Source: Candidatus Saccharimonadia bacterium
GTDB taxonomy: Bacteria > Patescibacteriota > SICC01
DNA: 64,000 nucleotides
Direction of reading: 5' to 3'
Assembly (NCBI GenBank): GCA_025449535.1
Contig: JANWJF010000001.1
Coordinates: forward strand, 138,847 to 202,846
Below the pieces are notes generated by a model. It searched no databases. It was not told the origin of the DNA and saw only the letters and a list, made by a program, of their open reading frames with translations. Both the position numbers and the translations under genes were made by a program. Shown here one piece after another: positions 6,094-58,881 of this stretch. Position 1 is the first letter of the stretch; each line of letters starts with the position of its first letter.

Positions 6094-6819
6094 ATGCGCA
6101 CGAGTACCATAGTTGCCCTAGTTGCAGCCGTCGTGCTTTTCTTCACTGGCCTTGCGCTGATGAAGAACGGCGACAAGCCGACGGAGCCCAATCAACAACA
6201 ACCGCAAAGCGGTAAGGAGCACGAACTGAGGCCTCACGCCATTAAGTTCACCCGCTGCCATGCGACCAAGCTCCGTCCGTGCGGTAGTACGTACCCGCTC
6301 GAAACCTCCGGATGGCTAGAGGTCTCTACCGAGTACCGCTGTCCGGACCACGCCAAGCCATGCGTCTACGCGATCGGTCCGTACTACACCATGTCGACCG
6401 CGGAACGGCACCGGTTCGACCGAAATCCGTGCGCCGTGGTCGCCAACGCAGCCCGGGTCGGCTTCGAACGGAACGGGTTCACGGTCCGGATTCCTAAGTG
6501 CGTCAACGCCCGCGGGCATGCGTTCATGAATGCCACGAACGGCCTGACGCGTAGCCAAGAACCAGCACCCACCCCGTGGGCCGTACCCGCACCCCCGCCG
6601 CTCCGGATTGAACCGGGCTACCGCTTTGGACCGCTCACCGTGGTTCGACGCTGTAAACCGCACCCTGACAGCAAGCTCTGCTTGGTACTCAGGATTGTTG
6701 AGCCAGTGGCTTCAGCCAAAGAGCTCAGCAATTTCGACCGGAATCCGTGCAACGTCGTATTCGAACATGTCGGGGGAGCTTGTCGCTCGTACGAGCGCCT
6801 CGCCGTCCTGAACATGTAA
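6094..6819 (+). CDS. secreted Cys-containing hypothetical protein with duplicated FDRNPC motif
   Basis: signal peptide/TM (MRTSTIVALVAAVVLFFTGLALM); AGGAG Shine-Dalgarno 7 nt upstream of ATG; internal repeat HRFDRNPCAVV / SNFDRNPCNVV. Confidence 0.6.
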   Translation: MRTSTIVALVAAVVLFFTGLALMKNGDKPTEPNQQQPQSGKEHELRPHAIKFTRCHATKLRPCGSTYPLETSGWLEVSTEYRCPDHAKPCVYAIGPYYTMSTAERHRFDRNPCAVVANAARVGFERNGFTVRIPKCVNARGHAFMNATNGLTRSQEPAPTPWAVPAPPPLRIEPGYRFGPLTVVRRCKPHPDSKLCLVLRIVEPVASAKELSNFDRNPCNVVFEHVGGACRSYERLAVLNM

Positions 6820-6946
6820 TCCACCGACCATCCTTTGCTTCACCACCCCACACCTTGCCTGGTCAGCAAGCCCCTCCGAAAGGAGTCGGGAAAAGTGTGG
6901 GGTGTTAGTTTTGGAAAACGCTTTAGTTAAGGAAGAATATAGCTAG

Positions 6947-6973
6947 TTGACAACATGTATACATATGTATACT
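6947..6973 (+). promoter_or_regulatory. candidate lexA promoter (TTGACA ... TATACT) with overlapping perfect 16-bp palindrome GTATACATATGTATAC (6957-6972)
   Basis: palindrome verified as its own reverse complement; lies between -35-like and -10-like hexamers about 90 bp upstream of lexA ATG. Confidence 0.45.
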
Positions 6974-7062
6974 ATCTAACTGCGCTCCCTCCTCCCAGCC
7001 CTTTCCAGGCTCGAAAACGAAAATGAGAAAGGGCTGGGCGCGCTCCCTAACCAAAGGACATT

Positions 7063-7695
7063 ATGAGCAACGAAGAACTTTCACCACGTCAACGTCAGAC
7101 GTTCGACGTGATCCAGAAACATATCAAGGACCACGGCCTGCCGCCCACGATCCGCGAGATCATGGCGGAACTTAAGGTTAACTACCCGCGCGGCGTGCAG
7201 CGGCACCTCGAAGCGCTCGAGAAGAAAGGGTATATTACCCGCGACTCGCGCAGCCGCGGCATCACCATCGCGGACAAGTTCCGCCAGGTGGCCGCGGACC
7301 TATCGGACGCCATCGTGAAGATTCCCCTGCTCGGCCGGATCCCGGCCGGCGGGCCGATGCTGGCCGAGGAAAACGTCGAGGACTGGGTGACGCTCCCGAC
7401 CGACCTCACCAAGGGCAAGCGGGACGTCTTCATCCTGCGTGCCCAGGGCGAATCGATGATTGGCGCCGGCATCTTCGACGGCGACCTCCTGATCTGTCAG
7501 CCCGTCGACCAAGCTGAGAATGGCGATATCGTGGCTGCGCTGATCGGTGAAGACGCCACGGTCAAACGGTTGGTAAAGCGCCGTGACGCGACGTACCTGA
7601 AGCCTGAGAATCCCAAGTACGAGAACATCTACCCCGATCAGGAGTGGAAGGTCCAAGGCAAGGTAATGGCGGTCGTCAGGTCGAACGTGCGCTGA
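7063..7695 (+). CDS. lexA: LexA repressor (S24 peptidase)
   Basis: N-terminal winged-helix region, C-terminal S24 domain with Ser (GESM) and Lys (VKR) in the expected spacing. Confidence 0.95.
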   Translation: MSNEELSPRQRQTFDVIQKHIKDHGLPPTIREIMAELKVNYPRGVQRHLEALEKKGYITRDSRSRGITIADKFRQVAADLSDAIVKIPLLGRIPAGGPMLAEENVEDWVTLPTDLTKGKRDVFILRAQGESMIGAGIFDGDLLICQPVDQAENGDIVAALIGEDATVKRLVKRRDATYLKPENPKYENIYPDQEWKVQGKVMAVVRSNVR

Positions 7696-7696
7696 G

Positions 7697-7858
7697 ATGA
7701 TGCGCTACGCCCCGGTACCGATCGACGAACGCGCGGCCCGGACCGCCCAACGTCGGATGGCCTATCGAGCCCCTGTCCGGAACGTCGACTCCACGCTCTG
7801 GGCCGGCATCTTGTTCTGGTTCGGATTCGCCGCGCTGGCGGTCATCGCCGGCCTTTAG
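7697..7858 (+). CDS. 53-aa small membrane protein, translationally coupled to lexA
   Basis: ATG one nt after lexA TGA (TGAgATG); translated by hand MMRYAPVPIDERAARTAQRRMAYRAPVRNVDSTLWAGILFWFGFAALAVIAGL; Arg-rich N-terminus plus one C-terminal TM; below ORF-track size cutoff. Confidence 0.35.
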   Translation: MMRYAPVPIDERAARTAQRRMAYRAPVRNVDSTLWAGILFWFGFAALAVIAGL

Positions 7859-8670
7859 CCGAGCACGTAATACCGGTCGCCGAGGTGTCGCACGGCGCCG
7901 GCCAGTTCCAGTTTGACCAGTTCCGCCTCGACCTCGTGCGGAGTCTTGCCTGATCGCACGACGAGTTCATCGAAGTGCGTCGCAGCGTCGGACAACAAGG
8001 CGGCCAGTCCGCTCCGGGCGGAAGCCGGGCTCCGGATGCCGTACGTCTCCAGGAACCGCTCGATGGAGACTAATGGCGTCGCGCCGTCTTCGAGCAGCCA
8101 GTTCGTCCCGAGGCTTTGCGGCGAGTCGATCGGACCGGGTACGGCCCAGATATCCCGGCCCTGCTCGCCGGCATGCCGGGCGGTAATCAGCGTGCCGGAC
8201 GGACGCGAGGCTTCGACCACCACGACCGCCCGAGCCAGGCCGGAGATCAGGCGGTTCCGGGCCTCGTAGTGATACCGCCGGGATGGCGTTCCCATAGGGT
8301 ACTCGGACAGCAAAGCGCCTTGCTTCGCGATTCGGTTCGCCAGTCGTACGTTGCTGCGAGGCGAGATGTCCTCGTCGGACAGGCCGGTCGGCAGCACGGC
8401 CACGCACCGTCCGCCAGCATCCAAGGCGGCGGTGTGGGCGACCGTGTCCACGCCGAAGGCCAAGCCGGAGATTACCGGTACACCGGCGGAGGCGACCCGC
8501 CCAGCCAGCTGGGAAGCGATGCGACGGCCATAGGAGGTCGGCCGGCGACTACCGACGATGGCGATTCCCTCGCCGGGAGGCGGCGTTCCGCGTACCCATA
8601 GCCTGCCCGGCGGCACCGGTATATCCCGAAGCACGGTCGGTATCGGCCATTCCTTTGTGGTAGCTTGCAT
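7855..8670 (-). CDS. dprA: DNA processing protein DprA/Smf
   Basis: Rossmann-like DprA core (IVGSRRPTSYG, GLAFGVDTVAH). Confidence 0.85.
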   Translation of the reverse strand: MQATTKEWPIPTVLRDIPVPPGRLWVRGTPPPGEGIAIVGSRRPTSYGRRIASQLAGRVASAGVPVISGLAFGVDTVAHTAALDAGGRCVAVLPTGLSDEDISPRSNVRLANRIAKQGALLSEYPMGTPSRRYHYEARNRLISGLARAVVVVEASRPSGTLITARHAGEQGRDIWAVPGPIDSPQSLGTNWLLEDGATPLVSIERFLETYGIRSPASARSGLAALLSDAATHFDELVVRSGKTPHEVEAELVKLELAGAVRHLGDRYYVLG

Positions 8671-57734: not shown

Positions 57735-58775
57735 TCAGGATTTCTTCGCCGGCTCGACTTCCGAGACCGGTTCCTCGGGCAGTTCCGTGAACCGTTCCAA
57801 CTTCTCCGCCACCTTGGCCTGCTTGCCGCTCAGCGAGCCGGCCTTGTCGATCTTCCCTTTCATCCGGTCGTAGTCCTTCTCGATGGACGGGATCGTCTTC
57901 TGGGCGTTGCCGAGGTGCTTGAACAGCAATCCCAGGTTCGCGCCCAGCTTGCCGGAGTCCTGCTGGATCGCTCGCAGCTCGTTGAGGACCTCCTTGGCCC
58001 GCGCCTCGATCTGCTCGCCCTCGAAGCTCTTCAGGACTAGCTGCAGGAACAGGTAGAAGTTGTTGGGCGAGACCAGGATCACGTGCTTCTCGGACGCGAA
58101 GTCGAAGAGGTCGGTATTGTTGTAGATCTCCTGGAACACCGCCTCGCCAGGCACGTACATGAACGCGTAATCGACGGTCTGCTCGCCCGGCAGGATGTAC
58201 TTCTTGGCGATGTCCGTGACGTGCTTCTTCACCTGCTGGCGGAACTCCCGCAGCAACGGCTCGCGGCCCTCGCCCTTCACCTTCTGGGCCGCCAGCCACT
58301 TCTCCAGCGGGAACTTCGAGTCGATCGGAATCATGCCGCTCGAGGTCAGCACCACCGCGTCCACCTTCTCCCCACTCTTGAACGTATGTTGCAGCTTGAA
58401 CTTCGTCTTCGGCAGGCATTCGGAGAGGATGTCCTTCATCAACGACTCGCCGACATTGCCGCGCAGCTTCGGCGAGCGGAACACGTCGCGCATCTCCTCG
58501 ATCGACTGGCCCATCTTCTGGATCCGGCCGACCTCCTTGTTGAGCTCGGCGATCACGCCGGCCGCCTTGTCCAGCCGCTGGCTGATCTCCTTGCTGGCCT
58601 CCTGCGATCCCCGGCTGGCGTGACGTTGGTCCTCCTTGAAGTCCTTCAACCACTGCATCAGGGCGGAATCACCATCGTCGGACTCACGCGCCTTCCGCTG
58701 CTTGAGCAACTCATAATAGACGGCGCCGATCATCACGATCAGCACGGCGGCAGCGATGACGAGGATAGTAGTCAT
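57735..58775 (-). CDS. rmuC: DNA recombination protein RmuC
   Basis: N-terminal TM + coiled coil, C-terminal RmuC nuclease-like region (YAFMYVPGEAVF, HVILVSPNNFY). Confidence 0.85.
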   Translation of the reverse strand: MTTILVIAAAVLIVMIGAVYYELLKQRKARESDDGDSALMQWLKDFKEDQRHASRGSQEASKEISQRLDKAAGVIAELNKEVGRIQKMGQSIEEMRDVFRSPKLRGNVGESLMKDILSECLPKTKFKLQHTFKSGEKVDAVVLTSSGMIPIDSKFPLEKWLAAQKVKGEGREPLLREFRQQVKKHVTDIAKKYILPGEQTVDYAFMYVPGEAVFQEIYNNTDLFDFASEKHVILVSPNNFYLFLQLVLKSFEGEQIEARAKEVLNELRAIQQDSGKLGANLGLLFKHLGNAQKTIPSIEKDYDRMKGKIDKAGSLSGKQAKVAEKLERFTELPEEPVSEVEPAKKS

Positions 58776-58881
58776 ATGTATACGGTACTCCGTTTTTTCT
58801 ACTGCTTCCAGCGTATACCAAACGGAAGAGAGCGAGCGCCTATGATGGTGGGCGCTCGCCCGTTGCTTCCGTCACTGCTGG

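Follow-up and report, generated by a model that had tools for sequence, protein, structure and literature searches.

What is encoded by the short open reading frame (ORF) that begins one base after the stop codon of lexA in the stretch of DNA analysed here, and is its product made in response to DNA damage? The stretch (the window) comprises 64,000 nucleotides (nt) of contig JANWJF010000001.1 from a Candidatus Saccharimonadia bacterium. An earlier note, made from its letters, had proposed that an unannotated frame of 53 amino acids (aa), translationally coupled to lexA, encodes a candidate SOS-induced membrane effector. The frame, hereafter gene X, was found where the note placed it (Table 1), with the product MMRYAPVPIDERAARTAQRRMAYRAPVRNVDSTLWAGILFWFGFAALAVIAGL, and the TGAgATG junction described there reads in full TGA-g-ATGATG. 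X was also said to end head-to-tail against dprA; in fact the two genes meet tail-to-tail, the TAG of X (7856-7858, + strand) overlapping the TAA of dprA (7855-7857, - strand). The frame was indeed unannotated in the ORF track of that time, but NCBI annotation and gene callers list its homologues as 'hypothetical protein' in related metagenome-assembled genomes (MAGs). The GC content of the window is 63%, a stop-free run of 53 codons has a chance of about 22% per frame as estimated from base composition, and 63 ORFs of at least 30 aa were counted in a 6-kb stretch of the window. Since a 53-codon frame is unremarkable at this GC content, its status as a gene had to come from relatives.

Comparison with these relatives leaves us highly confident that X is a genuine gene, translated and transcribed together with lexA. 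The nearest LexA genes in the genome collection (69-91% identity) were found in MAGs labelled Patescibacteria group bacterium or Candidatus Saccharibacteria, and the next-best LexA proteins, from other phyla, reached at most 47% identity. Homologues of X lie directly 3' of lexA in the loci L001 (65 aa), L002 (62 aa), L003 (50 aa) and L004 (51 aa), and a truncated copy was found at a contig end in L085. An exhaustive phmmer search of 1.84 billion representatives gave three further members, and a profile search of 5.8 billion clusters gave 17 X clusters of 41-65 aa, all unnamed or 'hypothetical protein', two of them with NCBI locus tags. A single-sequence word-index search with X returned the identical protein only. 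The metagenome scan with the X alignment and the pattern [LM]WAG[IVM]LFW produced 102 pattern matches, none of which was confirmed, and from the scan with LexA the clade gained no loci beyond L084 and L085. Judging from these searches, the X family is confined to one narrow, high-GC lineage resembling Patescibacteria/Saccharibacteria. It is uncharacterised: the family showed no match in Pfam (E <= 1) or NCBIfam, neither to SulA (PF03846) nor to LysM or any other Pfam domain. A profile match in the PDB to a plant multicystatin (E 1.4e-4, 27 residues) was judged spurious, as it covers a hydrophobic stretch with no biological link.

Analysis of the codons of X revealed purifying selection. Pairwise dN/dS (the ratio of nonsynonymous to synonymous substitution rates) was 0.16-0.42, at synonymous sites near saturation (proportion of synonymous differences, pS, about 0.6), and 0.07-0.15 for lexA in the same pairs. 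Across 11 loci the mean pairwise differences at codon positions 1, 2 and 3 were 0.35, 0.18 and 0.49, the second position being the least variable, and 9 of the 13 near-invariant residues use several synonymous codons. All indels, from 3 to 39 nt, preserve the frame; the GC content at third codon positions (GC3) is 0.83 in X and 0.81 in lexA; and the + frame was open in all seven loci checked for stops in all six frames. The supposition that relatives would keep the ORF downstream of lexA, uninterrupted and under selection, was thus borne out. X might nevertheless be untranslated, either a chance open frame in GC-rich DNA or a conserved RNA or DNA element; open frames of its length are common at 63% GC, and the antisense frame was also open in 6 of the 7 loci. 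The dN/dS values, the synonymous codons at invariant residues, the in-frame indels and GC3 together lead to the rejection of a chance ORF. Against a structural element stand the absence of an RNA structure signal at the 3' end of X by folding (z = -0.34) and of any relevant Rfam match in 6800..8000, which includes X and the lexA leader. On these comparative sequences X is a genuine protein-coding gene under purifying selection.

On the minus strand of L001-L004, antisense ORFs of 211-315 aa run over lexA into X. They are shadow frames typical of high-GC3 coding DNA and not genes, and automatic ORF tracks could mistake them for genes.

The alignment of the X family (17 sequences) revealed a conserved N-terminal motif in which the Asp is invariant and the Arg and Pro are near-invariant, each with several synonymous codons. 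The variable linker that follows has between 0 and about 25 residues. In the window's subgroup it is rich in Arg, and here the Arg-rich N-terminus of the earlier description stands; family-wide it does not, the net N-terminal charge of the homologues varying between -1 and +4. Two or three residues ahead of the hydrophobic helix there is a conserved Asp. The Kyte-Doolittle mean of residues 34-53 was 2.05 over 19 residues (1.85-2.16 across seven homologues), and AlphaFold2 with the family alignment predicted a helix at residues 27-51 with a predicted local distance difference test score (pLDDT) of 94-98 and a low score, about 60, for the N-terminal part; both agree with the single hydrophobic helix proposed before. 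Nowhere is X better conserved than in the first half of this helix, L[WG]AG[VIM]LFW, where G37, L39, F40 and W41 are invariant in the 17 sequences. No charged residue occurs in residues 34-53 of the window's protein or of most homologues; P0004/L004 has one Arg near the C-terminal end. Since this transmembrane segment (TM) is C-terminal, with only 0-4 residues beyond it in the homologues, X is by prediction a single-pass tail-anchored membrane protein without an N-terminal signal or TM. The near-absence of residues after the TM, together with the basic N-terminus of most members, would place the N-terminus and the conserved motif in the cytoplasm and essentially nothing outside the cell.

The gene that precedes X encodes a canonical LexA. 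It aligns over its full length with solved LexA structures (E 1e-33) and keeps the Ala-Gly cleavage site (IPAGGP), the catalytic Ser (GESM) and the Lys (VKRL). In all 14 clusters with examined contigs (of the 17) X sits between lexA and a convergent dprA, and in none of the 14 was it found apart from lexA. The order topA-lexA-X-dprA-mfd is kept across much of the clade, and the gene upstream of lexA varies: topA or a hypothetical gene in most loci, a DUF3800 gene in L166 and L167 and a NYN gene in L174. The start of X lies between -4 and +16 nt from the lexA stop (Table 1). Alignment of the junctions showed the ATGATG double start in each of the 14 complete loci as well as in L085. GGAG occurs inside the 10-nt spacer of L166 and the 16-nt spacer of L164 but not in the 5-nt spacer of L174. 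No tetramer resembling a Shine-Dalgarno (SD) sequence was found within 25 nt upstream of X in the window, an absence that is by itself uninformative because about half of the 24 window genes checked also lack one at that distance from their start. The invariant ATGATG and the GGAG of the longer spacers indicate that translation of X from the lexA transcript appears to be selected. The expected pattern would be reinitiation at the tight junctions, aided by an SD sequence where the spacer allows it. The anatomy of the junction thus supports the translational coupling proposed in the earlier note.

The only promoter-like site in 6700..8100 is the TTGACA-17-TACTAT site upstream of lexA, and no terminator-like site was found on the + strand between this promoter and dprA. 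Since the sole promoter-like site is upstream of lexA and no terminator follows, we infer that lexA and X form one LexA-autoregulated transcript.

Two further observations concern transcription at this locus. In the window and in L003, L004, L082, L165 and L168, the X and dprA genes have overlapping stops or gaps of 0-34 nt in which no terminator-like structure was found. Induced lexA-X transcription would probably continue into dprA as antisense RNA, and could thereby connect SOS induction with the expression of a DNA-uptake gene. In addition, the starts at 8670 (dprA), 17211 and 5902 (topA) are preceded at 6-13 nt by a -10-like box, TATACT or TATACC, with no SD-like tetramer, which suggests that leaderless or short-leader mRNAs are frequent in the source organism.

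Table 1. Coordinates of the features described in the text. Positions refer to the window unless a locus (L number) is named.
Feature	Position or locus	Strand	Description and basis
Gene X (small gene)	7697..7858	+	predicted 53-aa tail-anchored membrane protein, second gene of the putative operon; conservation, dN/dS
N-terminal motif of X, residues 1-12	7697..7732	+	MM[RK]x[IV]P[VI][PR][IVF]D[DE]R; alignments
C-terminal transmembrane helix of X, residues 34-53	7796..7855	+	LWAGILFWFGFAALAVIAGL; Kyte-Doolittle, AlphaFold2
lexA	7063..7695	+	canonical self-cleaving SOS repressor, first gene of the putative operon; Pfam LexA_DNA_bind 1.2e-20, Peptidase_S24 1.5e-30
dprA	7855..8670	-	convergent neighbour, outside the operon; Pfam DNA_processg_A 4.7e-63 and DprA_WH
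Coupling junction	7693..7702	+	TGA-g-ATGATG: lexA stop, one base, double ATG
Sigma-70-type promoter of the lexA operon	6947..6975	+	TTGACA, 17-nt spacer, TACTAT; 10/12 match
Probable LexA operator	6957..6972	.	perfect 16-bp palindrome GTATACATATGTATAC, core TATAC-N4-GTATA; overlaps promoter spacer and -10 box
Hairpin in the lexA 5' leader	6982..7043	+	closed by GCGC/GCGC, flanked by the direct repeat GCGCTCCC; RNAalifold
lexA stop to X start, -4 nt	L165, L175		
lexA stop to X start, -1 nt	L082		
lexA stop to X start, +1 nt	window, L001, L002, L083, L173, L085		
lexA stop to X start, +4 nt	L003, L004, L168		
lexA stop to X start, +5 nt	L174		
lexA stop to X start, +10 nt	L166		
lexA stop to X start, +16 nt	L164		
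Gene Y	L005 3655..3780; L084 3169..3294; L170 3001..3126; L171 1981..2106; L172 303..428		41-aa ORF at the position of X in the sister clade
Antisense ORFs over lexA into X	L001 2914..3768; L003 2857..3771; L004 2827..3774; L002 3184..3819	-	211-315 aa; shadow frames
Second perfect operator-like site	L166 1195..1208; L167 1370..1383		upstream of a 76-aa gene and a DUF2204 gene
Near-match to the operator	58768..58783		GTAGTCATATGTATAC; 2 mismatches, one perfect half-site
Gene of the RmuC family	57735..58775	-	Pfam RmuC 1e-47
ORF between topA and lexA	6094..6819	+	241 aa; no Pfam match

Analysis of the region upstream of lexA revealed a palindrome overlapping the promoter. The sequence TATAC-N4-GTATA occurs once per locus upstream of lexA in the 17 clade loci that cover this region, L166 and L167 having one additional site each. 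The promoter sequence does not vary across six related loci, nor does the promoter/palindrome block in L001-L004; in 10 of 11 loci TTGACA is found 11 nt upstream of the palindrome. By chance no match to the perfect palindrome would be expected in the window; in a control of 754 kb of loci from other phyla, 17 matches were found at up to one mismatch. Fixed arms around a changing centre (ATAT, ATTT, ACCT, GTAT, GCCT, GCAT) form a pattern that fits the operator of a dimeric repressor, and the architecture of the palindrome resembles the Gram-positive LexA box CGAAC-N4-GTTCG. The palindrome is very probably the LexA operator. With a conserved promoter and palindrome, and neither a terminator nor a promoter-like site between the operator and X, the earlier argument that co-transcription with lexA puts X under SOS control is sound, and we regard SOS induction of X as probable. 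Between the promoter and lexA a stable, conserved leader hairpin was predicted by RNAalifold from the window and L001-L004, with 18 pairs of which 5 show compensatory double changes; it could act on the stability or translation of the lexA-X transcript.

The window has a perfect site before lexA only, and relaxed matches to the operator were at chance level (5 found, 2.7 expected). The exception among them is a near-match that falls exactly on the ATG of a minus-strand DNA recombination gene of the RmuC family, and could be a weak LexA site or a chance occurrence. The second perfect sites of L166 and L167 precede, by about 150 nt, a 76-aa gene and the DUF2204 (nucleotidyltransferase-like) gene behind it, a pair that may represent an additional LexA-controlled operon.

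The sister clade (LexA identity 69-75%; L005, L084 and L170-L172) does not carry X between lexA and the convergent dprA. At this position we found a conserved ORF of exactly 41 aa, gene Y, with the sequence MQLALS..SRRR.RA.YRRLAFKAFPRLTSF. Y carries a net charge of +9 and lacks a hydrophobic helix (its best Kyte-Doolittle mean over 19 residues is <=0.67), is preceded by its own AGGAG or GGAGG Shine-Dalgarno sequence, and belongs to a family of 9 clusters, all unnamed; Rfam gave no match for Y in L005 and L084. The possibility that Y is a frame-shifted, antisense or diverged X was rejected, as blastn and tblastn gave no significant match. The occurrence of two unrelated small genes behind lexA is suggestive of a lineage-specific effector position.

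If X is SOS-induced, what might it do? In the scheme that we propose, LexA would bind TATAC-N4-GTATA over the -10 region of the single promoter and repress lexA and X together. DNA damage would then lead to RecA-stimulated self-cleavage of LexA, as its conserved cleavage and catalytic residues would allow, and the operon would be derepressed. Ribosomes ending lexA at UGA would restart at the AUGAUG one nt downstream, and X would be made in step with new LexA. By analogy with known inhibitors, X would insert with its N-terminus inside, and the intramembrane face L[WG]AGxLFW together with the N-terminal motif would bind a membrane partner, the likeliest candidate being a protein of late division or of septal wall synthesis, for example FtsW. 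This would hold back division until LexA has built up again and shut the operon off. As a chain leading from the operon to division inhibition this scheme is tentative, and its functional element, that X is a division inhibitor or DNA-damage checkpoint protein, is the leading functional reading, possible though on balance doubtful. Since the membrane segment is the best-conserved part of X, a specific intramembrane contact is suggested rather than a passive anchor.

The analogy is drawn from the lexA-adjacent SOS division inhibitors of Bacillus, Listeria, Staphylococcus, Mycobacterium and Corynebacterium, mutually non-homologous single-TM proteins; the Gram-positive inhibitors are recognised mainly through their position next to lexA and their control by LexA (PMC6851548). 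The TM is needed for the activity of the lexA-adjacent inhibitors; YneA acts by TM contact with FtsW, and SidA, SosA and ChiZ are predicted or modelled to do likewise (PMC13396833). X has in common with YneA (Bacillus subtilis), SosA (Staphylococcus aureus), ChiZ/Rv2719c (Mycobacterium tuberculosis) and DivS (Corynebacterium glutamicum) the size class, the single TM, the linkage to lexA and a probable LexA operator. However, the genes of these four are divergent from lexA; X is on the lexA strand, downstream of it, and its translation is probably coupled to that of lexA. In the products of the four the TM is N-terminal and the extracellular C-terminal part is functional, consisting of a LysM domain or a conserved juxtamembrane segment; extracellular proteases cleave this part during recovery. 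X has instead a C-terminal TM, nothing predicted outside the cell, a conserved cytoplasmic motif and no match to LysM or any Pfam family. The hosts also differ, being Bacillota or Actinomycetota for the YneA group and a Patescibacteria-like lineage for X.

SidA of Caulobacter crescentus is a 29-aa SOS-induced inner-membrane inhibitor that binds FtsW (PMC13396833, PMC4211646). Like X it is very small; it consists of hardly more than a single TM helix, is regulated by LexA and intervenes late in division by contact within the membrane. It shows no sequence similarity to X, which adds the conserved 12-residue N-terminal motif and the variable linker. To our knowledge, sidA is a stand-alone SOS gene outside the lexA operon. 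The wiring of X has a precedent in the lexA-sulA operon of Pseudomonas aeruginosa (PA3007-PA3008), in which the gene of a division inhibitor lies directly downstream of lexA in the same transcript, and induction and shut-off are thereby common to inhibitor and repressor. SulA, however, is a soluble protein of about 160 aa with a RecA-like fold that binds FtsZ, whereas X is a 53-aa membrane protein without a SulA match in Pfam. In topology X resembles ElaB, YqjD and YgaM of Escherichia coli, tail-anchored, ribosome-associated stationary-phase proteins of about 100 aa that are not linked to lexA; in these too a cytoplasmic N-terminal part is followed by one TM at the very end of the protein. Their sequences show no similarity to X.

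Several points weigh against a role of X in division control. Linkage to lexA is limited evidence of shared function, since a single narrow clade keeps the lexA-X-dprA arrangement and the genomes are compact with overlapping gene ends. Coupling to lexA would imply basal synthesis of X in undamaged cells, which is awkward for a division inhibitor. X has neither the N-terminal TM nor the functional extracellular part nor the divergent transcription of the Gram-positive SOS inhibitors; SidA, on the other hand, also lacks an extracellular domain, so that such a part does not define the whole class. Finally, no canonical SOS gene other than lexA carries a perfect box in the window, and the probable operator is assigned from lexA autoregulation alone.

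The strongest alternative, which we consider unlikely, is that X is a real small membrane protein unrelated to DNA damage, which came to lie behind lexA through genome packing and whose SOS-dependence is incidental. The gene ends overlap or abut on both sides of X, 4 nt being common to X and dprA in many loci. The conservation of the topA-lexA-X-dprA-mfd order across much of the clade makes the linkage non-discriminating, and the absence of an SD-like tetramer before X is nothing special among the window genes. A mere passenger would be harder to reconcile with the changing upstream neighbours of lexA (topA, DUF3800, NYN), through which lexA and X stay fused at -4 to +16 nt, or with the invariant ATGATG and the GGAG of the 10- and 16-nt spacers, which point to selection for expression from the lexA transcript. 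The different conserved small gene of the sister clade further suggests that the position itself matters. In its boldest form, the proposal of an SOS effector would hold that the position behind lexA is dedicated to fast-evolving small SOS effectors and has been filled at least twice by unrelated genes, X and the gene of the soluble Y, and that X is the first DNA-damage checkpoint protein identified in the Candidate Phyla Radiation (CPR), acting from the cytoplasmic side through its N-terminal motif and intramembrane face, a topology that no SOS division inhibitor is known to have; this is speculative and, at present, distinctly unlikely.

X may also work with LexA or RecA as their partner or modulator, for instance as a membrane tether or by tuning the cleavage, stability or localisation of LexA, in an arrangement like that of recX behind recA or of antitoxin-toxin pairs. 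Tight translational coupling is typical of proteins that act in fixed ratios, X was never found apart from lexA in the 14 clusters, and its conserved N-terminal motif would face the cytoplasm, where LexA and RecA reside. Against this, the best-conserved part of X is intramembrane and beyond the reach of either protein, and no precedent for a membrane-anchored LexA partner is known to us. LexA can evidently do without X: the sister clade lacks X but has a closely related LexA (69-75% identity) under the same operator. We consider this explanation improbable.

In E. coli, TisB and DinQ are LexA-controlled type I toxins. The earlier note had likened X to SidA and to toxins of the TisB type; SidA, together with YneA and SosA, is the better fit, despite the differences in topology and gene arrangement, and the comparison with TisB fits poorly. 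An SOS-induced membrane-damaging toxin of the TisB, DinQ or Hok kind, causing depolarisation, growth arrest or persistence, would like X be a small hydrophobic single-helix peptide behind a (predicted) SOS promoter (for TisB, see PMC11575346). However, TisB and DinQ have their own promoters, long structured leaders, antisense RNAs and charged helices, none of which was found for X, and since X would accompany every translation of lexA, a toxic product would be costly. The helix of X lacks charged or polar residues of the kind found in TisB-type helices, and X carries a conserved 12-residue cytoplasmic motif that such toxins lack. Little was found in phage collections: tblastn of X against phages gave no match, and PHROGs gave nothing at threshold other than phrog_8552 (E 0.039) in a single X member. 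A toxin of this kind thus seems highly improbable. That X is untranslated is scarcely credible, being effectively refuted by the comparative data given above.

Among the neighbours of lexA, the 241-aa ORF that separates topA from lexA encodes a hydrophobic segment at the N-terminus, is preceded by a good SD sequence (AAGGAG) and shows a GC3 of 0.71. A gene of the same length lies at this position in L081, and genes of 138 aa and 125 aa are found there instead in L082 and L164, respectively. The content of the topA-lexA interval thus appears to be variable between relatives.

The cell-cycle control and stress responses of the Patescibacteria (CPR), mostly uncultured episymbionts with tiny genomes, are almost unexplored. 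Small membrane proteins tied to lexA are already established, with SidA for minimal size and lexA-sulA for co-transcription as partial precedents of X. If X were a mere passenger, it would be one more lineage-restricted small protein family of the kind easily missed by ORF length cut-offs. The probable operator TATAC-N4-GTATA can be used for mapping the SOS regulon of this lineage. X in the lexA operon is a concrete candidate, possibly the first, for a DNA-damage checkpoint in Patescibacteria. Should it prove to be a division inhibitor, the rule that a small single-TM gene beside lexA encodes an SOS division inhibitor would hold outside Bacillota, Actinomycetota and Caulobacter as well; X would add to it a new topology, tail-anchored and without an extracellular part, and a new wiring, in which coupling to the repressor itself would provide automatic shut-off.

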